64,000 nucleotides of DNA from Candidatus Omnitrophota bacterium (lineage in GTDB: Bacteria; Omnitrophota; Gorgyraeia; Gygaellales; Profunditerraquicolaceae). Made by a program: the position numbers and the translations under genes. The stretch lies in the NCBI GenBank assembly GCA_025453445.1, contig JALOQJ010000001.1:9155-73154 (forward strand), given 5' to 3'. The notes beneath the pieces were generated by a model. The model saw only the letters and a list, made by a program, of their open reading frames with translations, was not told the origin of the DNA and ran no database searches. This document shows, one piece after another, positions 1,166-60,622 of this stretch (position 1 is the stretch's first letter; each line of letters starts with the position of its first letter).

Positions 1166-2477
1166 TCGCCTCCTTTATGCCTTTGGCTTTTACTAAAGTC
1201 TCTTCGTATTCCTGCGCAGGATCCGAATCCGCAACAATGCCTGCGCCTACCCAGAAATAAACTTGTTTATTTTTCTTGAGGATCGTGCGAATTAGAATAT
1301 TAAAATCCATATTTCCGGAAAAACTCAAATACCCCAAAGCTCCGGTATAAATCGAGCGCGGCAGAGGCTCCAATTCTTTGATAATTTCCATAGCGCGGAT
1401 TTTTGGGCAGCCGGTAATTGAACCTCCGGGAAAACACGCCTGCAATAAATCAATCCTGTTTTTATCTTTATGCAACCTGCCTTCTACCGTGGCAGTAGTC
1501 TGATACACCGTACTATAAGTTTCTAATGTGCGCGGGGCAGTGACTTTGATGGAATCATATTCGCAGACTTTTCCTAAATCATTTCTTTCCAAATCCACGA
1601 TCATCACCAATTCTGCCTTGTCTTTGGCGCTTTTAAGCAGTTCTTTTTTCAGCCGTGTATCGTGTTTTTTATTTTTGCTGCGCGGCCGGGTGCCTTTCAT
1701 CGGCCGAGTGGTCACTTTATCTTCTGTAACGCTTAAAAATCTTTCCGGAGACGAACTGATTATCTCAAAATCTTCTGAGCTAAAATAAGCGCTGAAAGGC
1801 GCTGGGCTGGTTTTACGCAGGCGCTGATAAATTTGTGCGCCGGATAAATTACTGATGCCCTCAAAACGCTGAGATAAATTAACCTGATAAATATCTCCCT
1901 GACGAATATACTCTTTGGCTCTTTTTACTGCTGCGATATATTCGGCCTTGCCAAAATTTGACCTAAGCCCTACGTTCCCTCGAGAACACTCATTCTGCGG
2001 AGTAATTTTTGTGCTGGCTGAGTCGGATACCTGCTGCAATAATTTCTTAAAATTGGTTTCTGCCAAAGCCTTGCTAAGATGATGTTTTTTCTCCGGAAAA
2101 CCAGAGGCAAAAAGATAAAGTAATTTTTTATGCTGATCAACAATCAGGCAGCTGTTATAAAGCCCAAACCCGCAATCCGGCACAGCTAAGCCGGAATCAT
2201 AAGCTAAATACCCCACTGCCCCTCCTAAAAAAGGCGGGCAATCGCCGGAAAGAGTAATTTTGTATTGCTGCAGCGCCTCTCTGAGTTTTTTAAACTGCTC
2301 ATCGCCTTTGCTTTTTATTTTTAAAAACGGCTCAAATCCCAGAAAGGAATACCTGCCAATACCCTGATCATTCAGGCCTGAGTCAAGAAAGAAACAATCC
2401 TTCTTTTGGCTTAAGCATGCAAAAAGCTGCAAAGGATCGCTTTTTAATTTATATGATTTCAAGATGTAATATGCCAT
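1146..2477 (-). CDS. pabB: Aminodeoxychorismate (or anthranilate) synthase component I
   Basis: 443 aa chorismate-binding enzyme with motifs MVIVDLERNDLGKV and GGSITGCPKIRAMEII. Confidence 0.75.
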   Translation of the reverse strand: MAYYILKSYKLKSDPLQLFACLSQKKDCFFLDSGLNDQGIGRYSFLGFEPFLKIKSKGDEQFKKLREALQQYKITLSGDCPPFLGGAVGYLAYDSGLAVPDCGFGLYNSCLIVDQHKKLLYLFASGFPEKKHHLSKALAETNFKKLLQQVSDSASTKITPQNECSRGNVGLRSNFGKAEYIAAVKRAKEYIRQGDIYQVNLSQRFEGISNLSGAQIYQRLRKTSPAPFSAYFSSEDFEIISSSPERFLSVTEDKVTTRPMKGTRPRSKNKKHDTRLKKELLKSAKDKAELVMIVDLERNDLGKVCEYDSIKVTAPRTLETYSTVYQTTATVEGRLHKDKNRIDLLQACFPGGSITGCPKIRAMEIIKELEPLPRSIYTGALGYLSFSGNMDFNILIRTILKKNKQVYFWVGAGIVADSDPAQEYEETLVKAKGIKEAIDVRNI

Positions 2478-3273
2478 CTATCCTAAAAGTACGCTCCTCA
2501 TTGCGTAAAGAACAAAACCCTACTAAATACAAATTGCGGCCGTTTTCCTGCTTGATCTGGCCGGGAACCACCTCTCTTTCAGATACCTCAGCTCCGGCAG
2601 AAGACAAATACCTGATTTTTAATTTTGCCCGCAAATCAATTGCTTTCTGAATTTGGTTTATTTTTTGCGCATGGATACTATCTAAAAAAAGCGGATCAAT
2701 CGCAAAAAGGCCGGAAAAATTATGAAAATCAATGATCCCTTTTGCCTCTAAGATATCTTTGAGCCGGTAGAATACATCTAAAGTCATCTCTACATCGGAA
2801 AACGCCCTGTGCTCCTGCTGTTGACGGACACCCAACCTATTTGCCACAAACCACAGCGCGTAACGCTGCATACCCGGCAAAAGCCGCTTTGCCATTTTTA
2901 AAATATCTGCAACAACAATGCCTTCCAGCTCGCCCTTACCAAGAAGCTTCAATTCATTGTTCAAGAAACCCATATCAAATCCGGCATTATATGAGCACAA
3001 ACAGCTGCCTTGTATAAAATCCAAGAATTTCGGAATTACTTCTTCCATTTCCGGCGCGTTTTCAAGCATTTCAGGTGTAATATTGTTTACCCTGAATGCT
3101 GCTTCAGAAATCGCACGCTTAGGATTTACTAAACTTTGGAATAAGGCGATTTTCTGCCTGCCTTTGAATCGTATTGCGGCAATTTCCACAATCCGATCCC
3201 CAGCCCTCGGCTCTAAGCCTGTCGTCTCCGTATCAAAAATTACAAATTCAACTTCATTAATGTCTATATTCAT
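2449..3273 (-). CDS. DEDDh 3'-5' exonuclease (DNA polymerase III epsilon-like) with a C-terminal WYL-like domain
   Basis: N-terminal FVIFDTETTGL Exo I motif and YNAGFDMGFL Exo II. The C-terminus LYLVGFCSLRNEERTFRIDGI resembles a WYL-domain core. Confidence 0.7.
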   Translation of the reverse strand: MNIDINEVEFVIFDTETTGLEPRAGDRIVEIAAIRFKGRQKIALFQSLVNPKRAISEAAFRVNNITPEMLENAPEMEEVIPKFLDFIQGSCLCSYNAGFDMGFLNNELKLLGKGELEGIVVADILKMAKRLLPGMQRYALWFVANRLGVRQQQEHRAFSDVEMTLDVFYRLKDILEAKGIIDFHNFSGLFAIDPLFLDSIHAQKINQIQKAIDLRAKLKIRYLSSAGAEVSEREVVPGQIKQENGRNLYLVGFCSLRNEERTFRIDGILHLEII

Positions 3274-3365
3274 TAGTTAAATTTCCTGTTAGATTCCAGC
3301 CTTTTATGCGTCTATTATAGTCAAAAGGAGGTGAAGATTAAAGTATTAATATTAAATAACTTACA

Positions 3366-3418: not shown

Positions 3419-3931
3419 ATGAAAGAGCTGGTACCTTTAGAAAAAATTGAACAAAAGATATTTTTCATCAGAAACCAGAAGGTTATGTTAGACAAAGACT
3501 TAGCTGAGTTATTTGGCGTTCCGACAAAACAATTGAATCGCCAAGTAAAACGCAATATTGAACGGTTCCCTCGGGAATTTATGTTCCAACTCACTCGTCA
3601 AGAAAGAGATGAACTGGTGCCAAATTGGCACCAGTTTAAAACAATGAAGCATTCCTCTACTATGCCTTATGCTTTCACAGAACACGGAGTAGCTATGCTT
3701 GCTACTGTTTTGAATAGTGCAAATGCGATAAAAATGAGCATAATTATTATTAAAACTTTTGTCAAATTGCGGGAGATAATTTCGACCCACAAAGAGCTAA
3801 CGCAAAAATTAGAAGCGCTGGAGCGAAAAGTCGATAAGCATGACGTCGAAATTCAGGCAATCTTTGAAGCTATAAAACAACTTGCTATGCCTCCTGAGCC
3901 ACCCAAGCGTTCAATCGGGTTTCATACGTGA
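3419..3931 (+). CDS. ORF6N-domain (KilA-N/antirepressor-like) DNA-binding protein
   Basis: The N-terminus IRNQKVMLDKDLAELFGVPTKQLNRQVKRNIERFPREFMFQLTRQE is the characteristic ORF6N domain signature. The C-terminus is a coiled coil. This is the only plus-strand gene in the left arm. Confidence 0.7.
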   Translation: MKELVPLEKIEQKIFFIRNQKVMLDKDLAELFGVPTKQLNRQVKRNIERFPREFMFQLTRQERDELVPNWHQFKTMKHSSTMPYAFTEHGVAMLATVLNSANAIKMSIIIIKTFVKLREIISTHKELTQKLEALERKVDKHDVEIQAIFEAIKQLAMPPEPPKRSIGFHT

Positions 3932-3961: not shown

Positions 3962-4003
3962 AGCTGTAGGGGAGGTTTAAACCTCCCCTACAGCTGTGGA
4001 TAA
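3962..4003. repeat. GTTTAAAC-centred palindrome (17 bp arms) followed by TGTGGATAA; copy a of a 4-member family. Probable bidirectional terminator between convergent genes.
   Basis: AGCTGTAGGGGAGGTTT|AAACCTCCCCTACAGCT followed by GTGGATAAC. Confidence 0.55.
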
Positions 4004-4032: not shown

Positions 4033-4647
4033 CTACCTTAACTCTTTCATTTTCGGTACAACATTAATGAGATCGCTAGAAGCAGCAAAATTTAGTAATT
4101 TAATTAAATCTGTATCATCGTAATCATCTGGATGATATAGAAAACTCTCCTTAAAGATATTTTTATAAAGTCCGCATAATAAACCAAATAAATATTTTAG
4201 CCCTTCACTTAATTCCCTACCTTTTATATCTGCTTCTTGCCAAATTTTATGGTGATCTAAGATACCATTTTTATCTAAATGAAAGTGTGTTTTGTCACGA
4301 ACGTGTTTTAGTTTCACTGCCAAGCTTTGCAAAGAATATATTTTTTCCTCTGAATAATCCTTTAAATTTTTTAAGACCAGCGTATCGGTTTTTAGGATAT
4401 ACCAAAAAGTAGAAGAATCTCCGCATTTATCAAGCTCGAGCACTTTAATAGCGTGACTTACCATATCGTTAAATAAAGCTTTTTGAGATATAGAAAAGTA
4501 GCTTTCACCATGAACATAGATTTCATTCTCATCGGTATATCGATCCCATGCCGTTAAGGCCTTTAATTCTAATAATGCGTGAGCAAGTTCGAAGAGATTT
4601 CTTTTTATGGCCGTATTATATCTAATACCATTCGCCAAATTTACCAC
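4033..4647 (-). CDS. Hypothetical protein, possibly HEPN-like (carries an Rx4-6H-type motif)
   Basis: 204 aa with no recognisable family. Contains HVRDKTHFH. Convergent with the ORF6N gene. Confidence 0.45.
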   Translation of the reverse strand: MVNLANGIRYNTAIKRNLFELAHALLELKALTAWDRYTDENEIYVHGESYFSISQKALFNDMVSHAIKVLELDKCGDSSTFWYILKTDTLVLKNLKDYSEEKIYSLQSLAVKLKHVRDKTHFHLDKNGILDHHKIWQEADIKGRELSEGLKYLFGLLCGLYKNIFKESFLYHPDDYDDTDLIKLLNFAASSDLINVVPKMKELR

Positions 4648-4689
4648 CTTTTAATTCTTTCCATGTATTAAATGAATCTGGCGCGTTTT

Positions 4690-4900
4690 CGAGCGAATGT
4701 CGATTTTGCCCCGCCTATGGCGGGGCAAAATCGACTCTGAGCGAGAAAATGCGACAGATTCATAGATAGCGTCCGCGCGAGAAACTGAACAAGGCACACG
4801 CAAAACAGTTATGCCTCGGCAGAACCCGCGGTCAATTTAATCGCTGCAAACGTTCCCGCAAAAATACAGACAAGGCACACGCGAAACTGCTATGCCTTTC
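4690..4900. repeat. MITE-like GC-rich repeat, locus A. A 17 bp-stem hairpin at 4699-4735 is followed by tandem R-modules.
   Basis: GTCGATTTTGCCCCGCC-TAT-GGCGGGGCAAAATCGAC. R-modules at 4768-4832 and 4845-4900 are about 85% identical to 63247-63316 and to the reverse complement of 59666-59712. The last module overlaps the final codons of the downstream gene. Confidence 0.6.
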
Positions 4901-5786
4901 TTTTTACAATGAACGCCGGAACAAACTTCACCGGATGATATGATAATTTAACGCGCTTGAGATTTTCCAGTCCTGAATCATCCATGATATTGATATATTT
5001 ATACTCGCTTAGCTCGCGGCAGAATTCGCGGAAGATAAATTGCGCTAAGCCTTTGATGCTTAAGTCGGTAATTTCATAAAGCACGCAGAAGGTATCATCA
5101 TTTAATTTGAATCCAAAAGTAAAACCTTTGAGCTCACCTTCAATTCTCACCAATCTGCCAAGGCAATTGAAATCCTGATAATTGTCGAGCAAAAGGCCTA
5201 AAGTCTTAAAACTGTCCTCGAGCATAAAACGATATGCATCGTCTTTGCTGTTTCCCCTGCGCTGCTCTGCCCATAATTTGTATAACTTAAGACAATCAGC
5301 TTTATCAAGCCTAGTAAACGGCGCGTATGCAAAATGGTAGTGCTTAGTAAAATAATTGAAGCTCGCCCGTTTTGATTTGAATTTATCGCTGCTTAATTCT
5401 GCCAGCTGACGCCTTGAACACAGATAATCCGATGATTTTTGTACACACTCTAGTCCTAAGCCGCGATAAAACTCCAAATCCTTTTCTTCAGCGTTTTCAA
5501 TCCGGGCAAATTCTTTATTGACGTTAAACTTATCTAAAATCTTAAAGCTCTCAGTTACAGCTTCAGAAGATATTTTCTTCCCAAGCGGCGACAGATATAA
5601 AAATGCCCCGATTTTATCCCGGAAAATAATGCAAAGATTGCCTGTAATCTCCAGCCAGCTGATTTCAAAGAGCCCTTTCCAGAGATAAATATTCTCCCAA
5701 GCATAAACCGACAACTCGTGGTTGTCGTAATGAAGATATTTGCTAAATCTTGATTTATCCTTTAAGGATAATTTATTTAATTTCAT
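4890..5786 (-). CDS. DUF2156-like protein (aminoacyl-phosphatidylglycerol synthase C-terminal domain fold)
   Basis: 298 aa with weak recognition of a LPG_synthase_C / GNAT-like fold. Confidence 0.45.
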   Translation of the reverse strand: MKLNKLSLKDKSRFSKYLHYDNHELSVYAWENIYLWKGLFEISWLEITGNLCIIFRDKIGAFLYLSPLGKKISSEAVTESFKILDKFNVNKEFARIENAEEKDLEFYRGLGLECVQKSSDYLCSRRQLAELSSDKFKSKRASFNYFTKHYHFAYAPFTRLDKADCLKLYKLWAEQRRGNSKDDAYRFMLEDSFKTLGLLLDNYQDFNCLGRLVRIEGELKGFTFGFKLNDDTFCVLYEITDLSIKGLAQFIFREFCRELSEYKYINIMDDSGLENLKRVKLSYHPVKFVPAFIVKRKA

Positions 5787-37427: not shown

Positions 37428-38519
37428 TTAACTCAAGCGCATCGGCAACACAATATAAGTATAGCCATCCACGCGGATAACTCCGGGCTTTTCACTATCA
37501 CTCACCTCAAAGCCCACACGTTCTTCGCTAAGGTTTTTCAACACATCGATAATATACACTGGATTAAAACCAATCGCCATTTCTTTGCCATGGTATTCCA
37601 CGTTCAATTCTTCGCGCGATTCACCAATGTCCGGGGTAGATTTTGACACCACCATCCGGTCTTTAAACATTTCCAGTTTTACTGCCTGGTAGTCCGGCGT
37701 AGCTAATAACGCCGCGCGCTTTACTGCCAGTAAAAATTGCTCTCTATCTACCACCACTTTACTTTCAGAAACCGCGGGAATAACCTGACGGTAGTCCGGG
37801 AATTCCCCTTCAATCAGCCGGGAAATTACCACAATCGGGCCCAAATCAAACAAAACCTGATTATTCCCCAAAATCAGCGATAACTCACCATCTTCCCGCA
37901 AATTCCGGTTGAGCTCATGAATGGTTTTAATCGGTACAATCATATTCACAGCCTTGTCGGTTTCTTGCGTCAATTTTTTATCTACAATCGCCAACCGTTT
38001 CCCGTCGGTAGCCACCAGGGTTAGTGTATTTTTATCAATCTTAAATAATATACCATTTAACACATAACGAGTTTCATCAAAAGAAACCGCAAAAGAGGTA
38101 AGATTCAAAATTGCTTTTAACACCCCCTGATCTAACTTAACTACCTCTTTATCTTTAAACTCGGGCAATTTAGGGAACTCTTCTTTACTTAATCCCATAA
38201 TCTTAAATTGACAAGTATCAGTCTCAATAATCACCAAATTGTTTTTTTTCGTGCTTAAATTCACTTCTTCCCCCGGCAATTCCCGAATAATATCACTAAA
38301 ACGCTTAGCCGGCACAGTGATCGAGCCAGGTTCCTGGATATCCACAGGGATTAAACAGGTTATCCCGATATCCAAATCCGTAGCAGTAAGTTTTAATTGA
38401 TTTGTATGTGTTTCTATTAATATGTTGGATAGTATTGGTAATGCTGATTTAGGAGTAATAACATTTTGTACTGTTTGTATACCGGTCAATAATACTTCTT
38501 TGGTGGTTTTAAACTTCAT
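37428..38519 (-). CDS. dnaN: DNA polymerase III beta sliding clamp
   Basis: 363 aa three-domain clamp, located after dnaA. Confidence 0.9.
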   Translation of the reverse strand: MKFKTTKEVLLTGIQTVQNVITPKSALPILSNILIETHTNQLKLTATDLDIGITCLIPVDIQEPGSITVPAKRFSDIIRELPGEEVNLSTKKNNLVIIETDTCQFKIMGLSKEEFPKLPEFKDKEVVKLDQGVLKAILNLTSFAVSFDETRYVLNGILFKIDKNTLTLVATDGKRLAIVDKKLTQETDKAVNMIVPIKTIHELNRNLREDGELSLILGNNQVLFDLGPIVVISRLIEGEFPDYRQVIPAVSESKVVVDREQFLLAVKRAALLATPDYQAVKLEMFKDRMVVSKSTPDIGESREELNVEYHGKEMAIGFNPVYIIDVLKNLSEERVGFEVSDSEKPGVIRVDGYTYIVLPMRLS

Positions 38520-40218
38520 TTATCCTCCCTATTAATATTAATTATATATAAAATACTTATATAGTCTTCGTAATAAAGGATTTTTGTTTCTGTTAACAAA
38601 CCTATTAACTCATTGAATCTATATAAATTATAATTTCAATATTCTGTGCACAAGTTGAGGTTTTATTGTTGAATAAACTGTATAAGTCGCTCTACCTTGT
38701 TTTTTAACCCCTCATCAGTGGTAATTGCCCCTTTGATTTTATTATAAGAATGCAAAACAGTAGTATGATCTTTACCGCCGAAAAAATCCCCAATTTCCGG
38801 CAAAGATAAATCTGTGAGCTCTCTGCTGATATACATGGCAATTTGGCGCGGCAAGACTATTTGTTTATTGCGCCTTTTAGTTTTTAGGTCGTGTAATGAT
38901 ACACCAAATTCTTCTGAAATACAACGCTGTATAAAATCTATTGTAATCAATTTTTTAGGTTCTTTTAATAGGTCTTTTAAAACTGCCTGAGTTAATTCTA
39001 AGGTGATGGGTTTTTCTTCTAATAAAGAATAAGCGATAGTGCGGATTAATGCGCCTTCCAATTCCCGGATATTGGTTTTAATCAGCTGGGCGATAAAAAA
39101 GATTACATCGTCGGGAACCGACACAGGCTCACGCTCAATTTTTTTCTTTAAAATCGCCACCCGGGTTTCTAGATCCGGCGCCTGAATATCAGTAGAGAGC
39201 CCCCAACTAAAACGCGACACCAAACGGTCCTGGAGGTTAGCTATATCTTTGGGTGGCCGGTCAGAAGAAATAATAATTTGTTTATGCGCGTCGTGCAAAG
39301 CGTTAAAAGTATGAAAAAATTCTTCCTGCGTTGATTCTTTGCCGGCAATAAATTGGATATCATCAATTACCAAAACATCTATGTTTCTGTATTTTTGCCT
39401 GAAAGCAGGAGTGGAATGATGCTGTATGCCGTCGATAAGTTCATTGGTGAATCTTTCCGAAGTAATGTAACAAATTTTAGTATTGGGTATTTGTTTTTTT
39501 ATCTGGTGGCAAATCGCCTGCATCAAATGGGTTTTACCTAAGCCCACCCCGCCATAAATGAATAAAGGGTTATAGGTTTTGGCCGGTGCATCTGAGACTG
39601 CCAAACAATAAGCGTGGGCATGGCGGTTAGAAGCGCCAATAACAAAATTTTCAAAGGTATAACGGGGATTAAGCCCGGCAATCGCCGGGTTTTCCGCGGG
39701 GAAGATATTTTTAGTGCTAAGCTGCGGGCTTGTTGGCTTTACCGTGGCTCCTACGCTTACCTCTAAGCTGACTTCTACCTCTTGTTTGCAGCTGGCACGC
39801 ACTGCTTCCCGGATACTATGTTTGTAGTGTTTCTCTACCCAATCTTTAAAAAAGGCGTCCGGAGCTTCCAGGATCAGCTGTTTGTCTGAGCCTAAGCAAG
39901 GTTTTAACGGTAAAATCCAGGTTTCAAAAGGAGTTTTCCCCAGTTCGGTTTTCAGCCCTTCCGATGCCTTTTCCCAAATGTTTTGAACGTCCAAATTCAC
40001 TCCTCATTTCAGCTATCCACAATTTATACACAACTTGAATAACTCTGTGGAAATATTATAACAGGCAGAAACCTCTTTGCAAATAAAAAAGTTAAGTGCG
40101 ATTTATTATACAAGAATTTTTTCAGCAGTCAACTAAATTTAACAATGGAAAAATAGTTGACGCAGCCGCGCTTTGTGTTATAATTACACCCTATTATAAA
40201 AAAAGGAGTAAAACTAAT
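38520..40218. other. Putative oriC region. AT-rich unwinding element between dnaN and dnaA, plus DnaA-box-like 9-mers upstream of dnaA.
   Basis: 38520-38662 is about 80% AT. CTATCCACA at 40013-40021 and TTTCCACA-like at 40046-40054. Gene orientation switches completely at this point. Confidence 0.5.
38663..40000 (-). CDS. dnaA: Chromosomal replication initiator DnaA
   Basis: AAA+ domain (GGVGLGKTHL), C-terminal DnaA-box-binding HTH. Start is probably the TTG at 39994, which is preceded by AGGAG. Confidence 0.95.
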   Translation of the reverse strand: MNLDVQNIWEKASEGLKTELGKTPFETWILPLKPCLGSDKQLILEAPDAFFKDWVEKHYKHSIREAVRASCKQEVEVSLEVSVGATVKPTSPQLSTKNIFPAENPAIAGLNPRYTFENFVIGASNRHAHAYCLAVSDAPAKTYNPLFIYGGVGLGKTHLMQAICHQIKKQIPNTKICYITSERFTNELIDGIQHHSTPAFRQKYRNIDVLVIDDIQFIAGKESTQEEFFHTFNALHDAHKQIIISSDRPPKDIANLQDRLVSRFSWGLSTDIQAPDLETRVAILKKKIEREPVSVPDDVIFFIAQLIKTNIRELEGALIRTIAYSLLEEKPITLELTQAVLKDLLKEPKKLITIDFIQRCISEEFGVSLHDLKTKRRNKQIVLPRQIAMYISRELTDLSLPEIGDFFGGKDHTTVLHSYNKIKGAITTDEGLKNKVERLIQFIQQ

Positions 40219-40591: not shown

Positions 40592-42115
40592 ATGGAAAAA
40601 CGCTTAGTTTTAGCTACAACCCTTTCAATTTTAATTCTTTTGCTTTGGTCGGCTATGCTGCCTAAAAAGCCGGTAATGGCGCCTATAGCTGTGCAGAATG
40701 AACAATCTAAGCCGCAAGGCCTAAACTTACCAGCTGAAGTAATGGAAGCACCAGCTGAGGTGCTTATGCCCCCCCTGCTATATTCTCAACCTCAAGAGGA
40801 AATTAGCTTTGTTGAGTCGCAAGCAGCTATCCAAAAAGTAATTTTTAAGAACTATCGTAATCATGAATTATTGCTTAAAAATGCGTTTTTCCTTAGAGGG
40901 CAGAACCTTTCGTTTAAAAAAATTAGTAGTACGCCAAACGAGATCGTTTTTGTCCATTCTGACCAAAATAAAAAGATTATTAAACGTTTTTTAATCAATA
41001 ACTCTAATTATACCATAGATTTAGAAATCAATGTCCAAAATAACTCTGTAACCCCTTTGCCAGTGAATTACGCCATTTCTATAGGCATCTTAGACTTTAA
41101 AACAGACCCAGCAGCCGGACGCTATAGGGATGTGGCTATAGCTACACCGAATAATGGTTTATTGCGTACAACATATGTGAATGGCCGCAAAGATCTGGCG
41201 GTAGAGCAGCCTAGTTTTGTGGCAGTGCGGGATCAATATTTTTGTAATATAGTTGAGCCGCTGAGTGCAGGCCAAACAGTGATTGTCAAAAAACTTAATC
41301 CTAATGAAACTGAAGTCATGCTTGCTCCTAAAGAAATTATACTGGTAGCTGGGGAAAGTGTTGAGCAAAAATTTCGTATATATTTGGGGCCACAAGACTT
41401 AGGAATGATAAAAGCCACTAATCCCGCTTGGGCAAGCGTAATTAATTATGGTTTTTTTGATTTTATTTCTCAACTGCTTTTACAGCTATTAGGCTTCTTT
41501 TATAGCTTGGTGCATAATTGGGGTTTAGCAATTATTATTCTGAGTGTGGCAGTATACTTCCTTCTCTATCCGCTGACTTTGAAGCAAATGCGTTCAATGA
41601 AAGCAATGCAGGCTTTACAGCCGCGGATGGAAGAATTAAAAAAGCTCTATAAAGATAATCCGCAGAAATTACATAAAGAGACCTTAGAGTTATACCGCGA
41701 ACATAAAGTAAATCCCCTTGGCGGATGCCTCCCTCTATTGTTGCAAATGCCCATCTTTTTTGCTCTTTATCAGGCGTTAGCACGCTCAATCGCTTTAAAA
41801 GGCGCGCATTTCTTATGGATCAAAGACTTATCTGAGCCGGATCGCTTAGCCCGGCTGCCGTTTAATTTGCCGGTGCTGGGTAATGAATTTAATATATTGC
41901 CGATTCTTATGGCAGTAGTGATGTTTTTCCAGCAAAAAGCCTCTTCAGCGTCTATGGGTAGCGAACATGCTGAACAGCAGAAAATTATGCTCATTGTAAT
42001 GCCGATATTGTTTGGTATGATTTTTTACCGCATGCCTGCTGGGTTAGTTTTGTATTGGTTCGTGAATAGCCTTCTTATGGCCACTTACCAATTTAAAATT
42101 AATAAAGCAAAATGA
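40592..42115 (+). CDS. yidC: Membrane protein insertase YidC (long periplasmic domain, diderm type)
   Basis: 507 aa with N-terminal TM, a large periplasmic domain, and a C-terminal 5-TM core with a basic tail. Confidence 0.9.
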   Translation: MEKRLVLATTLSILILLLWSAMLPKKPVMAPIAVQNEQSKPQGLNLPAEVMEAPAEVLMPPLLYSQPQEEISFVESQAAIQKVIFKNYRNHELLLKNAFFLRGQNLSFKKISSTPNEIVFVHSDQNKKIIKRFLINNSNYTIDLEINVQNNSVTPLPVNYAISIGILDFKTDPAAGRYRDVAIATPNNGLLRTTYVNGRKDLAVEQPSFVAVRDQYFCNIVEPLSAGQTVIVKKLNPNETEVMLAPKEIILVAGESVEQKFRIYLGPQDLGMIKATNPAWASVINYGFFDFISQLLLQLLGFFYSLVHNWGLAIIILSVAVYFLLYPLTLKQMRSMKAMQALQPRMEELKKLYKDNPQKLHKETLELYREHKVNPLGGCLPLLLQMPIFFALYQALARSIALKGAHFLWIKDLSEPDRLARLPFNLPVLGNEFNILPILMAVVMFFQQKASSASMGSEHAEQQKIMLIVMPILFGMIFYRMPAGLVLYWFVNSLLMATYQFKINKAK

Positions 42116-46946: not shown

Positions 46947-47615
46947 ATGCCCGCTAAAAGAAAAGAATTAAAAATCGAAGGTGCGAATCTCTGGTACTTG
47001 GTGGGGTTAATTACTAGCGACGGGTGTTTGTCCGGAGACGGCAGACATATTGATATTACTTCAAAGGACTATGAATTTCTGAGCAGATTAAAAGATACAT
47101 TAGGTTTTACGAATAAAATTGGCACTAAAAATAACGACAGGGTTAACCAGGCATATTATTTACAATTTTCGAATAAGAATTTTTATGAATTTTTAGTATC
47201 AATAGGTTTAACACCAAATAAATCCTTAAGCTTAAGTAGTCTTAATATCGCCAAAGAGCTTTTTGGTGATTTTTTTAGGGGCTTGATTGATGGCGATGGA
47301 TCTATTCGCCGGTGGGTGCACCCCTCCAATAATAATGAACAGTGGAGCTTAAGAATTTATTCGGGCTCCGAAAAATTTATTAATTGGTTAAATATAGCAG
47401 CAGAACAATTATTAAAAGTTCGTGGCAAAGTGCATAAAAATGCGAATAATACGTGGGTATTGAAATACGGCAAAATGGCCGCGAAACAGATTGCAGAACA
47501 ATGTTATTATAAAGACTGTTTCGGTTTAGACAGAAAAATAAAATTAGCCCAAGAATGCATTCATTCATACGCGGGCTGGAGTAAAAGTAAGACAATTAGT
47601 CCGTTTTGCTCCTAG
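46947..47615 (+). CDS. Double-motif LAGLIDADG homing endonuclease
   Basis: Two motifs: LVGLITSDGCL and FRGLIDGDGSI. Ends 7 nt before tRNA-Leu. Confidence 0.8.
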   Translation: MPAKRKELKIEGANLWYLVGLITSDGCLSGDGRHIDITSKDYEFLSRLKDTLGFTNKIGTKNNDRVNQAYYLQFSNKNFYEFLVSIGLTPNKSLSLSSLNIAKELFGDFFRGLIDGDGSIRRWVHPSNNNEQWSLRIYSGSEKFINWLNIAAEQLLKVRGKVHKNANNTWVLKYGKMAAKQIAEQCYYKDCFGLDRKIKLAQECIHSYAGWSKSKTISPFCS

Positions 47616-47933: not shown

Positions 47934-48010
47934 GGGCGGTTAGCGCAGTTGGTTAGCGTACCACATTGACATTGTGGTGGTCACTGGTTCGAGTCCAGTA
48001 CCGCCCACCA
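47934..48010 (+). tRNA. tRNA-Val (anticodon GAC), CCA encoded
   Basis: Acceptor GGGCGGU/ACCGCCC, anticodon loop UUGACAU. Confidence 0.9.
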
Positions 48011-58333: not shown

Positions 58334-59656
58334 ATGCCCAATCCTACCGACTTATTTCATGAATCCAAACCAGAGAATATCAAAGATCTGCCTCTTGCTG
58401 TGCGTATGCGGCCAAGCTCGCTCGATGATTTTATCGGCCAAGAGCATATTATCGGGAAAAATAAATTACTCCGCCGGGCAATCGAAGCAGACAGGGTAAG
58501 TTCATTAATTTTATTCGGCCCTCCGGGAGTAGGTAAAACTTCTCTTGCTTGGTGTATTGCCAATGTCACCAAGGCCAATTATGCTGCTATTAACGCTACG
58601 ACCTCTAATGTTGAAGAGCTGAGAAAAGCTATTCAGCGTGCCAAACAAATCAAAGCCAATTCCGGCAAGAAAACAATTCTTTTTATCGACGAGATTCACC
58701 GTTTCAACAAAGCTCAGCAGGATGTTTTATTGCCTGATGTAGAAGAAGGAAATCCTATTCTTATCGGAGCAACTGTGCATAATCCATTTTTTTCACTCGC
58801 TGCTCCGCTTTTATCGCGATCGCTAGTCTGTGAATTAAAAACTTTAAAAGAAAAAGAAGTGCTATCAATATTGAATGCTGCTTTAAAAGATAAAACCAGG
58901 GGCCTGGGAAATCTGGATATCAAAGCAGAAAAAAAGGCTTTGGAATTTTTGGCAAAAATCTGCGAAGGGGATGCCCGCCGGGCGCTGAATGCATTGGAAG
59001 TGGGAGCCTTAACTACCCCGCCGCAAAAAGACGGGACAATTAAATTTGATTTAGAAGTAGCTGCCGAGTCAATCCAGAAAAAACCCGTGATCTATGATCA
59101 CGACGAAGACGGCCATTATGATACTGCTTCGGCATTTATAAAATCTATGCGCGGCTCTGATCCTGATGCTGCAATATATTGGATGGCAAAGATGCTTTAT
59201 GCCGGTGAGGATCCGCGTTTTATTGCCCGCAGGATTTGTATTCTGGCAGCAGAGGATGTGGGCAATGCTGATCCTTTGGCAATAGTTTTAGCTAATGCTG
59301 CATTGCAGATTTCTGAATTTGTCGGCATGCCTGAGGCGCGTATTCCGCTGGCACAGGCATGTATTTATGTATCTTGTGCGCCCAAGTCTAATGCCAGTTA
59401 TCTGGCAATTGATAAAGCTTTGCAGGATATTGAAAGTAATAAAGTGCAGGAAGTGCCGGATCATTTGAAAGACGGTACTCTGGACGGAGATGTTCTTGGC
59501 CACGGGAAAGATTATAAATATGCCCATGATTTTCCCGGCCACCACGTCAAGCAAAAATATACCCGTAAAAAAGTCCGCTACTATGAACCCACTGACATTG
59601 GCCACGAAGCGAAAATCAAACAAAGATTAGAGCAGTTGCGAAATAGCGAAGAATAA
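58334..59656 (+). CDS. rarA: Replication-associated recombination protein A (AAA+ ATPase)
   Basis: Walker A GPPGVGKTS and the conserved MgsA C-terminal region. Confidence 0.9.
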   Translation: MPNPTDLFHESKPENIKDLPLAVRMRPSSLDDFIGQEHIIGKNKLLRRAIEADRVSSLILFGPPGVGKTSLAWCIANVTKANYAAINATTSNVEELRKAIQRAKQIKANSGKKTILFIDEIHRFNKAQQDVLLPDVEEGNPILIGATVHNPFFSLAAPLLSRSLVCELKTLKEKEVLSILNAALKDKTRGLGNLDIKAEKKALEFLAKICEGDARRALNALEVGALTTPPQKDGTIKFDLEVAAESIQKKPVIYDHDEDGHYDTASAFIKSMRGSDPDAAIYWMAKMLYAGEDPRFIARRICILAAEDVGNADPLAIVLANAALQISEFVGMPEARIPLAQACIYVSCAPKSNASYLAIDKALQDIESNKVQEVPDHLKDGTLDGDVLGHGKDYKYAHDFPGHHVKQKYTRKKVRYYEPTDIGHEAKIKQRLEQLRNSEE

Positions 59657-59657
59657 A

Positions 59658-59895
59658 CAGTTCCGCGTGTGTCTTGTCTGTATTTTTGCGGGAACGTTTG
59701 CCCCGCCCCAGCGTGGCGGGGCTGCACTTCGTTCCAGCCCCTCGCTCTCTCGCAGCCGGGCCCTGAATAAAATCGTTTTTAATAATTTGGAGCCGGCTGC
59801 TCGAACCGTGCCCGCTCGGGGCTTTCAAGATCCCGCAAAAACACAGCCAAGCCACCCGCTAAAACTCTCCTGCTCGCAACAGCCACTCGCTCAAA
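59658..59895. repeat. MITE-like GC-rich repeat, locus B (inverted relative to locus C), with internal subterminal inverted repeats
   Basis: The reverse complement aligns across about 180 bp with 63120-63300. TIR-like TGTCTGTATTTTTGCGGGA (59677-) and TCCCGCAAAAACACAG (-59851). Hairpin GCCCCGCC-N7-GGCGGGGC. Confidence 0.6.
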
Positions 59896-59930
59896 TGTAG
59901 TATATATTAATAAAGTAAGAAAAATAATAC

Positions 59931-59959
59931 TTGACGTACCTTTTTACATATGGTATACT
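59931..59959 (+). promoter_or_regulatory. Sigma70-type promoter of the antitoxin-toxin-GHKL operon
   Basis: TTGACG, 17 nt, TGgTATACT. SD AAGGGGGAA lies before ATG 59984. Confidence 0.55.
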
Positions 59960-59983
59960 TATTTTAGAAAGGGGGAAATAGAT

Positions 59984-60220
59984 ATGACGACGACAATTGT
60001 AACTACAAAAGGACAGATTGTGATACCCTCAAAGATCCGCCGAAGGCTCAATATCAAAAAAGGCACAAAATTATATATTGAGGAAAGAGGGGATGAGTTG
60101 ATTCTAAAGGCAGTTACTCCTGCTTATTTCGAGAAGATAGCAGGTGTTCTACAGACCAAAGGAAAATTATCCAAAGCGCTGGTTGAAGAGCGCACCAGGG
60201 AAAAAGAAAGAGAGGCTTAA
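59984..60220 (+). CDS. AbrB/MazE/SpoVT-family antitoxin (VapB-like)
   Basis: 78 aa; swapped-hairpin motif KGQIVIPSKIRRRLNIKKGTKLYIEERGDELILKA. Confidence 0.75.
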   Translation: MTTTIVTTKGQIVIPSKIRRRLNIKKGTKLYIEERGDELILKAVTPAYFEKIAGVLQTKGKLSKALVEERTREKEREA

Positions 60221-60223
60221 TCT

Positions 60224-60622
60224 ATGACAAGGATTATTGATGCTCATGGCCTCTTAGTTTTCTTGGAAAAAGAGGCTGGTTACGAAAAGGTGGAGCAATA
60301 TTTTATTTCTGCAACAGAGAAAGAGAAACAATTATTAATGGCTTCTGTGAATTTTGGAGAAGTATATTATATTGTCTTACGTGAATGTGGCCAAGAGAAA
60401 GCCCATGAAATAGAAAAAATAATCAGGACTTTACCTATCGCCATAGTTGATGTAGATATGCAGCTTGCTAGAGAAGCCGCTCGTTTTAAAGCCAGTCACA
60501 AAATATCATATGCTGACTGTTTTGCCGCCGCCTTAGCAAAGCTGCACAAAGGCGAAGTTATAACAGGAGATAAAGAGTTTAAAACAATAGAACAAGAGGT
60601 AAAAATCGCATGGATAGCCTAG
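60224..60622 (+). CDS. PIN-domain toxin (VapC-like)
   Basis: 132 aa with acidic residues in PIN positions: IIDAH, SYADCFAAALA, ITGDKEF. Confidence 0.75.
   Translation: MTRIIDAHGLLVFLEKEAGYEKVEQYFISATEKEKQLLMASVNFGEVYYIVLRECGQEKAHEIEKIIRTLPIAIVDVDMQLAREAARFKASHKISYADCFAAALAKLHKGEVITGDKEFKTIEQEVKIAWIA

Follow-up and report, generated by a model that had tools for sequence, protein, structure and literature searches.

In the 64,000-nucleotide stretch of Candidatus Omnitrophota DNA analyzed here (referred to as the window), three GC-rich intergenic loci, designated A, B, and C, share long stretches of sequence. The most plausible explanation, which we hold with reasonable confidence, is that they are copies or fragments of a lineage-specific, non-autonomous, non-coding, dispersed and structured repeat, probably co-transcribed in 3′ untranslated regions (3′-UTRs). 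Evidence for this explanation includes a branched fold maintained by compensatory base changes and the occurrence of the family in several genomes at non-orthologous sites. Small dispersed hairpin-forming intergenic repeats are already known as a kind of element, but the present family appears to be undescribed, and no Omnitrophota paper was among the top results of a literature search on bacterial repeats.

Repeat units and fragments in the window

A previous sequence-only reading of the window had proposed a modular family resembling MITEs (transposable elements of the miniature inverted-repeat type) at the three loci, and every similarity listed there was recovered by self-comparison of the window. 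The following units and fragments were distinguished, where left-to-right (L-to-R) orientation is defined as that of unit C read on the plus strand, P2 and P3 are inner stems described below, and names such as L032 denote individual contigs or loci compared with the window.

59656-59870, minus strand: unit B, full length, with type-1 arms, of which the right one starts directly 3′ of the RarA stop codon (59654-59656)
63080-63296, plus strand: unit C, full length, with type-2 arms and in inverted orientation to B
63043-63056, plus strand: left arm of the third subtype (GCGGGTGACGAGGC), outside unit C and pairing with 63300-63316, as read from the sequence
63300-63316, plus strand: right arm of the third subtype (GCCTCGGCAGGACCCGC), directly after unit C, in a nested/tandem arm arrangement
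4672-4763, plus strand: mini-unit of locus A with a partial left arm, a GC hairpin, and a partial right arm, without the P2-P3 domain
4768-4829, plus strand: A1, a solo type-2 right arm with a type-3 arm end, copying the right edge of unit C
4842-4905, plus strand: A2, a solo type-1 right arm over the stop codon (4890-4892) of a gene for an LPG_synthase_C-like protein (Pfam)

The reverse complement of B (59647-59863) aligned with C (63088-63304) over 219 nt with 72% identity (blastn self-comparison, E 1.5e-32), which extends the match of about 180 bp noted before. With the covariance model R1, unit B scored 206.5 bits (E 2e-54; nhmmer E 1.6e-67) and unit C 214.9 bits; the minimum free energy of C was −109 kcal/mol (z −3.8). 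The subterminal inverted repeats described for B correspond to its inverted arms (59665-59693 and 59831-59859, 86% complementary). The GC hairpin was present at all three loci, in B at 59700-59707/59715-59722 and in C at 63230-63237/63245-63252. The right arm of C points at the terminator of a block with a small RNA and tRNA-Val. The third-subtype arm found around C forms the actual outer stem in the short variants of L055 (6595-6779) and L051 (136-321), and the R2+R3 junction of the right edge of C recurs at 4813-4829 in locus A (90%). The extra type-3 arms around C, and the copy in A1 of C's right junction together with the extra arm, therefore indicate that elements occur nested and with tandem arms.

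Locus A, which had been counted as a copy, does contain parts of the repeat but is not a full unit; it is a mosaic of a mini-unit and the two solo right arms A1 and A2. The GC hairpin of the mini-unit is the perfect 17-bp stem reported earlier (4699-4715/4719-4735). Self-complementarity of the mini-unit amounted to 79.6% over 93 nt (fold z −6.5), its arm motifs GTTTTCGAGCG and GAGCGAGAAAA were assigned as homologous from the sequence only, and the covariance model gave a weak match over 4663-4810 (10.4 bits, E 0.77). A1 was 90% identical to 63254-63315 over 62 nt (E 9e-16; nhmmer E 2e-9), somewhat more than the approximately 85% estimated before. A2 was 95% complementary to the right arm of B over 44 nt (4846-4889 versus 59658-59701; nhmmer E 7e-11), and 4846-4905 matched the reverse complement of 59641-59701 with 85% identity (E 6e-12). 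The tandem right-arm modules proposed for this locus (4770-4816 and 4851-4897) were 74% identical.

The GC content of the loci (0.595-0.60) contrasted with that of the window (0.42), as had been stated, and apart from tRNA genes the three loci were the only clearly intergenic GC peaks in the window. Folding of all three exceeded that of shuffled controls (z −3.8 to −6.5). The covariance model found no further copies in the window beyond these loci.

Short open reading frames (ORFs) of 43-79 amino acids overlap the units, as might be seen if the loci were remnants of a decayed protein-coding gene. However, these ORFs had no significant Pfam match (best E 0.1), substitutions track base-pairing and not codon structure, and the similarity reaches E 1e-32 within 64 kb, occurs in both orientations, and extends to copies in other genomes. 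We therefore give decayed coding sequence or chance similarity a negligible probability.

Conserved fold of the unit

The full unit is about 210 nt long (185-217 bp across the detected units) and has a GC content of about 58-60%, versus 42% for the genome. Two inverted arms of about 30 nt (29-33 nt) form the long outer stem P1; the other parts are the inner stem P2, the long but optional hairpin P3, and the short GC hairpin P4, and all are linked by invariant purine-rich unpaired motifs of the GAGCG type. In L-to-R orientation the left arm reads GYGGSTGRCTTGGC...GTTTYGAGCGCGG. The conserved junction beside P2 has GAGCGGSCAYGG on one side and GAGAGCGA on the other, and P3 is formed by CCCGCAGCCGG and CCGGCTGCGGG with an A/T-rich loop. 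P3 is followed by a linker with GAGCG, by P4, and by the right arm (the R module of the sequence-only reading), which pairs with the left arm. The unit ends are GTTTYGCG...CGCRAAAC. At least three arm subtypes exist, in which the central 4 bp co-vary (CTTG/CAAG, CAAG/CTTG, and CGAG/CTCG).

The fold was predicted with RNAalifold and scored on 12 full copies. Compensatory double changes were found at 21 of the 47 predicted pairs, and 95.4% of the cells were standard pairs on the named structure, compared to 85% in column shuffles. None of 500 shuffles matched the observed pairing, the number of covarying pairs, or the covariation score, and sliding the partners by 1-3 columns reduced pairing to 36-44%. 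Over the 12 copies, the outer helix was 92% paired. P4 occurred in several variants (GCACCGCC/GGCGGTGC, GCCCCGCC/GGCGGGGC, GCAACGCC/GGCGTTGC, GCTTTTCC/GGAAAAGC, GCATTTCC/GGAAATGC, GTTTTGCC/GGCAAAAC, and GATTTTCC/GGAAAATC), around a loop of the ACGCTGG type that is nearly constant in most copies. P2, which lies outside the scored model, was recognized by eye in several variants (AAAATCCC/GGGGTTTT, AGCCCC/GGGGCT, GGAAAGCC/GGCTTTCC, and GAAAATT/AATTTTC). In two copies (L055 6595-6779 and L051 136-321) P3 is exchanged for a small stem with the junction motifs kept. P1 of several copies contains an apparent tandem G.A mismatch (GA opposite GA) between covarying pairs, which was likewise seen by eye and is unscored. 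The covariation in the arms and inner hairpins around invariant unpaired motifs points to selection on a folded single strand, either RNA or single-stranded DNA (ssDNA), a pattern that a plain model of terminal inverted repeats (TIRs) bound by a transposase does not predict. The purine-rich loops lie on the L-to-R strand, and co-transcription with the upstream gene would yield the opposite strand.

Copies in other Omnitrophota genomes

RarA and further encoded proteins mark the source of the window as a Candidatus Omnitrophota metagenome-assembled genome. The family is not confined to the window: at least six further Omnitrophota genomes or metagenomic populations contain it, at non-orthologous sites. 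When a 26-nt internal pattern was scanned across one genome per species, 12 contigs matched. Nine of these came from five further Omnitrophota metagenome-assembled genomes (MAGs; Black Sea, a lake at 400 m, and other sites) and contained, according to nhmmer and the covariance model, full copies (181-230 bits) or short variants (~91 bits). The other three were from non-Omnitrophota genomes and showed short similarity around the pattern region only. The right-arm pattern CAAGGCASACGCRAAACNNNTATGC had no match in the genome contig collection; in metagenome contigs it gave one real contig (L003) and one chance match (L004), and the viral contigs scanned by pattern yielded chance matches only. Further relatives with the family were found via RarA and the LPG-synthase-like protein, namely L032/L033 (RarA 93% identical), L034 (RarA 87%), and L038-L043. 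No units were present in the more distant RarA relatives L035-L037 and L056-L067 (RarA 83-84% identical).

Several genomes or metagenomes contain more than one copy: at least four contigs of MAG BS750m-G77 and two of M_DeepCast_400m_m2_183 carry copies, two copies were found in the Ga0265297 metagenome, L055 has two units, and the window itself has two full units plus fragments. Within BS750m-G77, the copies in L045, L047, and L054 share 95-97% identity and are located after the genes for MurJ (before UvrC), riboflavin synthase, and a family-9 glycosyltransferase (GT9), respectively. L032 and L038 are from the Ga0265297 metagenome and probably represent a single population; the copy that follows RarA there and the one that follows the LPG-synthase-like gene share 93% identity. 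Unit C is 93% identical to the RarA-adjacent unit in L032/L033 and 89% identical to the unit adjacent to the LPG-synthase-like gene in L038, and the match between A2 and B's right arm reaches 95% though they lie behind different genes. At the orthologous RarA site, the unit of the relative is only 72% identical to B but 93% identical to C, which is located 3.4 kb off in the opposite orientation; copies therefore have been replaced or moved and not simply inherited. Both the presence and the subtype of the repeat vary at this site among relatives. Units were found singly, as head-to-head pairs, nested, and as solo or tandem arms.

Eight contigs (L002, L039, L040, L041, L042, L043, L047, and L051) end inside or beside a unit. 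They come from independent assemblers (JGI, ENA, Logan, and NCBI), and breaks of this kind arise where multi-copy repeats stay unresolved or where junctions vary among strains.

In L034 (11440-11532), L032 (11556-11646), and L041 (10968-11126), full units or solo arms are accompanied by short "S" hairpins (TTTTTTGCGGGT...ACCCGCAAAAAA), whose arms resemble type 3 and whose interior resembles GAGCGA; these hairpins are apparently relatives of the repeat family that have been reduced further. In L047, an ordinary FMN riboswitch (5169-5364, 94.5 bits) lies a few kilobases from the repeat-bearing riboflavin synthase gene.

Position and orientation relative to genes and replication

In 12 of 15 units the right arm is directed towards a neighboring gene's 3′ end and lies 0-45 nt past its stop codon; the stop codons of RarA and the LPG-synthase-like gene fall within a conserved end motif of the ATAAC type. 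Two of the three exceptions are the second members of head-to-head pairs, in which the units face each other left end to left end at a distance of 41 nt (L055) or 57 nt (L051); the third, L048, is a single unit whose right arm is directed towards a gene start. B and C are placed in the same way, their left ends being separated by 3.2 kb of cargo.

The window contains dnaN (37428-38519, minus strand), dnaA (38663-40000, minus strand), and yidC (40592-42115, plus strand), with a gap of 590 bp between the latter two. This arrangement makes it likely that a replication origin is located near 40.0-40.6 kb, within the window. Gene strands switch at the likely origin, with genes running in the direction of replication. 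With respect to fork movement, locus A and unit B point the same way and unit C the opposite way. Gene direction and replication direction are not separable as the orientation rule from the present data.

Such an orientation bias would also be produced if a transposase of the HUH (Y1) class (RAYT or IS200/IS605 type), with its gene located elsewhere in the genome, moved the element as ssDNA in the manner of REPINs (doublets of repetitive extragenic palindromes [REPs]). The hairpins would then be the recognition structures of the enzyme, and the bias would reflect insertion into the lagging-strand template. The lack of target-site duplications, the conservation of the hairpins by compensation, the inverted head-to-head pairs (those in L055 and L051, and B-C in the window), and the shared fork-relative orientation of locus A and unit B on opposite sides of oriC agree with this mode of spread. 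However, unit C violates the replication rule while keeping the gene-3′-end rule, the unit has 5-10 times the length of a REP and lacks a head of the GTAG/CGTC type, and long terminal inverted arms are foreign to IS200/IS605 ends. No RAYT or other Y1 transposase was seen in the ~430 kb of DNA examined, which does not cover whole genomes. We regard a REPIN-like origin as decidedly improbable.

Weighing the dispersed-repeat explanation

Several observations weigh against the explanation of the loci as a non-autonomous mobile repeat. The first concerns its ends: no target-site duplication was found in the flanks of 12 aligned copies, including the three that are 95-97% identical. The TAA or TAG beside the right arm is part of the conserved ATAAC/ATGAC end motif or the stop codon of the host gene. 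Neither a transposase, among the neighboring genes scanned against Pfam or read from annotation (not every ORF of the window was annotated), nor an autonomous partner element, in the loci examined, was present; the former result agrees with what the sequence-only reading had stated. A clean pair of an empty and a filled site was not found among close relatives, so that the evidence falls short of proving transposition rather than gene conversion or recombination; L035-L037 and L056-L067 offer no clean empty site because they carry no units. Upstream of the left arm there was no conserved promoter, and scans of loci A and B revealed no hairpin with a U-tract terminator on either strand. The counts of G.U-type and A.C-type cells on the L-to-R strand (30 versus 9, with 23 of the 30 coming from two helix-end positions) are compatible with folding of either strand. 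Moreover, invariant loop motifs would be expected in a functional RNA or a protein-binding site more than in a passive MITE.

The designation as MITE-like thus held in part: the family is a modular non-coding repeat of small size, without a transposase ORF, with terminal inverted arms of about 30 nt and with multiple dispersed copies, several per genome, but it lacks the target-site duplication. A classical DDE-type MITE by the full definition was rejected for this reason, and TA or TAA duplications with CAGT ends (IS630/Tc1-like) were rejected when both ends of the 12 copies were aligned. Terminator scans likewise led to rejection of an intrinsic (Rho-independent) terminator; the unit hairpins are flanked in the order T-run, stem, A-run, and the sole terminator-like site near C (63369-63338, minus strand) belongs to an adjacent small transcript.

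The fold and its invariant loops raise the question of whether the unit is primarily a functional structured RNA, either a cis-acting 3′-UTR element or an independent small RNA of ~210 nt, in which the fold and the GAGCG loops are kept for protein binding, for protection or processing of mRNA 3′ ends, or for insulation, and which is used by many genes. Covarying pairs at 21 positions, invariant unpaired motifs, and an optional stem of variable length are classic signatures of such RNAs. The tandem G.A in P1, the fixed orientation behind stop codons, and the persistence of the element at particular intergenic sites across diverged genomes (MurJ/UvrC in L045 and L051, and the RarA and LPG-synthase sites) are in line with this function, and U.G pairs at the two helix-end positions on the L-to-R strand, one of them alternating with C-G, provide a weak hint. 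On the other hand, the genes beside the units have no common function, the family includes head-to-head pairs and nested copies as well as arms that stand alone or in tandem, and copies are near-identical within a genome while they differ in subtype at the orthologous RarA site in relatives, all of which fits selfish spread better. Besides the missing promoter, no Rfam family matched: a search of Rfam 15 for a known small RNA gave no relevant match at the gathering score for any copy tested, and none at E ≤10 for the window loci or at E ≤1 for nine other loci, while a permissive search returned only generic long-hairpin noise (e.g., MIR6459 with 30 bits versus a gathering score of 100). We consider a primarily functional RNA unlikely. 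It is compatible with the best explanation, the readings as dispersed repeat, functional RNA, and REPIN-like element not being mutually exclusive.

Cargo cassette and strain-variable hot spots

Between the left ends of B and C, the window contains a cassette that is not part of the repeat and has a GC content of ~36%.

59905-62969 (operon 59984-62970), plus strand: cargo cassette with a promoter and genes for a MazE-type antitoxin, a PIN toxin, and a 786-amino-acid protein (Pfam)

The 786-amino-acid protein has a weak, sub-threshold match to a GHKL ATPase domain (HATPase_c_3), and homologs with 40-60% identity occur in several phyla, including a contig labeled as Methanomassiliicoccales archaeon, so that it represents ordinary mobile cargo. 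The cassette, promoter included, is 83.7% identical over 3067 nt to positions 3206-6260 of L068, a groundwater Omnitrophota contig, where it follows tRNA-Val/tRNA-Asp and is not accompanied by repeat units. From this comparison, the MazE-PIN-786-amino-acid operon is a segment that travels as a unit.

The inverted units B and C bracket this low-GC cassette, and DNA adjacent to the left arm varies between close relatives at both hot spots, as would be expected if the units were ends or recombination sites of cargo islands, with B, cargo, and C forming a composite transposon or with the units serving as attC-like sites. We rejected this explanation, which we rate as very unlikely, because the cassette occurs without units in L068 and the polarity of the ends is wrong, GTTT...AAAC being the reverse of the attC R″/R′ boxes. 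In addition, most units elsewhere lie between housekeeping genes without cargo, the units do not form co-oriented arrays, and none was seen with an integrase gene beside it.

After RarA, the window has the MazE/PIN/786-amino-acid genes and an extra tRNA-Val, whereas relatives have a 365-amino-acid gene of unknown function (L033), a rearrangement to TrmE (L032), repeat fragments only (L034), or a HigB/HigA-like pair without repeats (L035-L037). After the LPG-synthase-like gene, a gene for a 204-amino-acid protein and an ORF6N gene are found here, and an apparently different, partial and unannotated ORF in L038. The claim that every copy sits beside accessory genes holds in this lineage only, since units in other MAGs are located between housekeeping genes (BirA/BioB, MurJ/UvrC, DHH/GFO, and after EPSP synthase). 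The best reading of the link to accessory genes is therefore that units and such genes have collected together at permissive hot spots: in the window, units mark two intergenic hot spots that vary among strains, at which repeats and horizontally acquired cargo would have accumulated independently. The repeats may supply homology for exchange there.

Further features were observed at these hot spots. The ORF6N protein matches the PADLOC candidate defense family PDC-S05 (E 2e-59; the ORF6N gene and its convergent neighbor are at 3419-3931 and 4033-4647), and its gene also adjoins DUF5981 in the relatives L061-L063. The ORF6N part of the proposed ORF6N/HEPN-like pair is thus correct; the convergent 204-amino-acid neighbor has no detectable HEPN or other domain, with no match in Pfam, NCBIfam, or PADLOC. 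A perfect palindrome (CAGCTGTAGGGGAGGTTTAAACCTCCCCTACAGCTG, ~3962-3997) between these convergent genes is unrelated to the repeat family. Positions 2449-3273 encode one protein in which a DnaQ/RNase T-type exonuclease domain is fused to a C-terminal WYL domain. A 37-nt motif containing TATAAT (TTSASTATAATAGACGCAKAAAA...GAAATCTAAC) occurs at 3288-3324 (minus strand) and 63592-63628 (plus strand) with 81% identity, at the far edge of both variable islands and facing outward to a core gene (exonuclease-WYL and DUF5981, respectively). It was absent from the near-empty site in L034 and from every other locus examined.

The variable island next to unit C also contains a second, divergent tRNA-Val(GAC) at 63486-63562 (feature span 63335-63562, minus strand), which shares the T-arm only with the copy at 47934-48010. 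A sigma-70-like promoter (63428-63400, 11 of 12 positions) and a clean terminator (63369-63338) frame a predicted transcript of ~55 nt, whose 5′ part is reverse-complementary to tRNA positions 3-39 (matches at 26 of 27 aligned bases, the alignment passing over 9 tRNA bases). Judged from this complementarity, the two could form a pair of an antisense RNA and a tRNA-like RNA beside the PIN toxin. Elsewhere in the window, a free-standing ORF with a LAGLIDADG_3 homing-endonuclease-like domain (46947-47615) lies between tRNA-Cys and tRNA-Leu.

Proposed spread and role of the repeat

Under the dispersed-repeat explanation, a factor supplied in trans would multiply the element within genomes. This factor would recognize the folded single strand and not a duplex TIR, which fits the lack of target-site duplications. 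Because of the position and orientation of the units, we infer that they are co-transcribed at the 3′ end of the upstream mRNA, where a stable structure would act like ERIC, REP, or bcr1 as a 3′-end structure or insulator.

A more far-reaching proposal, which we consider clearly unlikely, is that the unit is a new class of ~210-nt structured nucleic acid with a specific partner protein and not merely selfish DNA. The GAGCG junction motifs, the tandem G.A seen by eye, and the covarying helices would then be a recognition scaffold. The unit would be either the RNA or ssDNA component of an undescribed mobilization or recombination system of Omnitrophota or a widespread 3′-UTR regulatory RNA, and head-to-head pairs would define capture sites for foreign cargo such as the MazE-PIN-786-amino-acid cassette.

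Omnitrophota are uncultivated, and the 47-pair structure with its 21 covarying pairs could enter RNA and repeat catalogs. The family offers an explanation for recurrent contig breaks in Omnitrophota metagenome assemblies and marks two strain-variable hot spots beside core genes near the replication origin. Should a dedicated protein recognize the fold, the family would open the way to an as yet unknown mobilization or regulatory mechanism; otherwise it is one more MITE/ERIC-like repeat.

Comparison with known repeat systems

Like integron attC sites, the units are structured, sequence-variable palindromic sites located directly after ORFs and near toxin-antitoxin cargo. They differ in the boxes, which are GTTT...AAAC in contrast to AAC...GTT in attC (R″ RYYYAAC...R′ GTTRRRY). 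Furthermore, they are not arranged in co-oriented arrays (B and C are inverted), no integrase was seen, and mostly there is no cassette beside them.

The REP/BIME/REPIN systems and the REPIN/RAYT concept (PMC3116915 and PMC2817692, and for the repeats also PMC3733652) share with the present family GC-rich extragenic palindromes, mosaics and inverted pairs after genes, the absence of target duplications, and hairpins under selection. REPs are 20-40 nt long with a GTAG/CGTC head and REPINs are ~100 nt long, whereas the Omnitrophota unit has ~210 nt and a structured interior, so that in size and head it does not conform to either.

On the best reading, the present family is of the MITE/ERIC/bcr1 kind. 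The ERIC and Correia elements of enterobacteria and Neisseria are imperfect palindromes of 100-160 bp with terminal inverted repeats at gene 3′ ends, are co-transcribed, affect mRNA stability, and occur in regions of genome plasticity (PMC3184786). These elements have TA target duplications and form simple long hairpins, in contrast to the Omnitrophota unit with its multi-helix junction, invariant loops, and lack of a duplication. MITE-type repeats in general can be located at gene 3′ ends, be co-transcribed, and modulate mRNA stability (PMC3184786).

The MITE-like bcr1 element of the Bacillus cereus group (~155 bp) belongs to another phylum and has no sequence similarity to the present family. 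It has flanking 5-bp direct repeats, which were not seen here, and its transcription has been demonstrated. The Omnitrophota unit is longer and branched, with an optional domain. In other respects the two agree: both are small, non-coding, and dispersed in intergenic regions, their distribution differs between related strains, and in both the fold is kept by compensatory changes, bcr1 being thought to act at the RNA level (PMC3184786).

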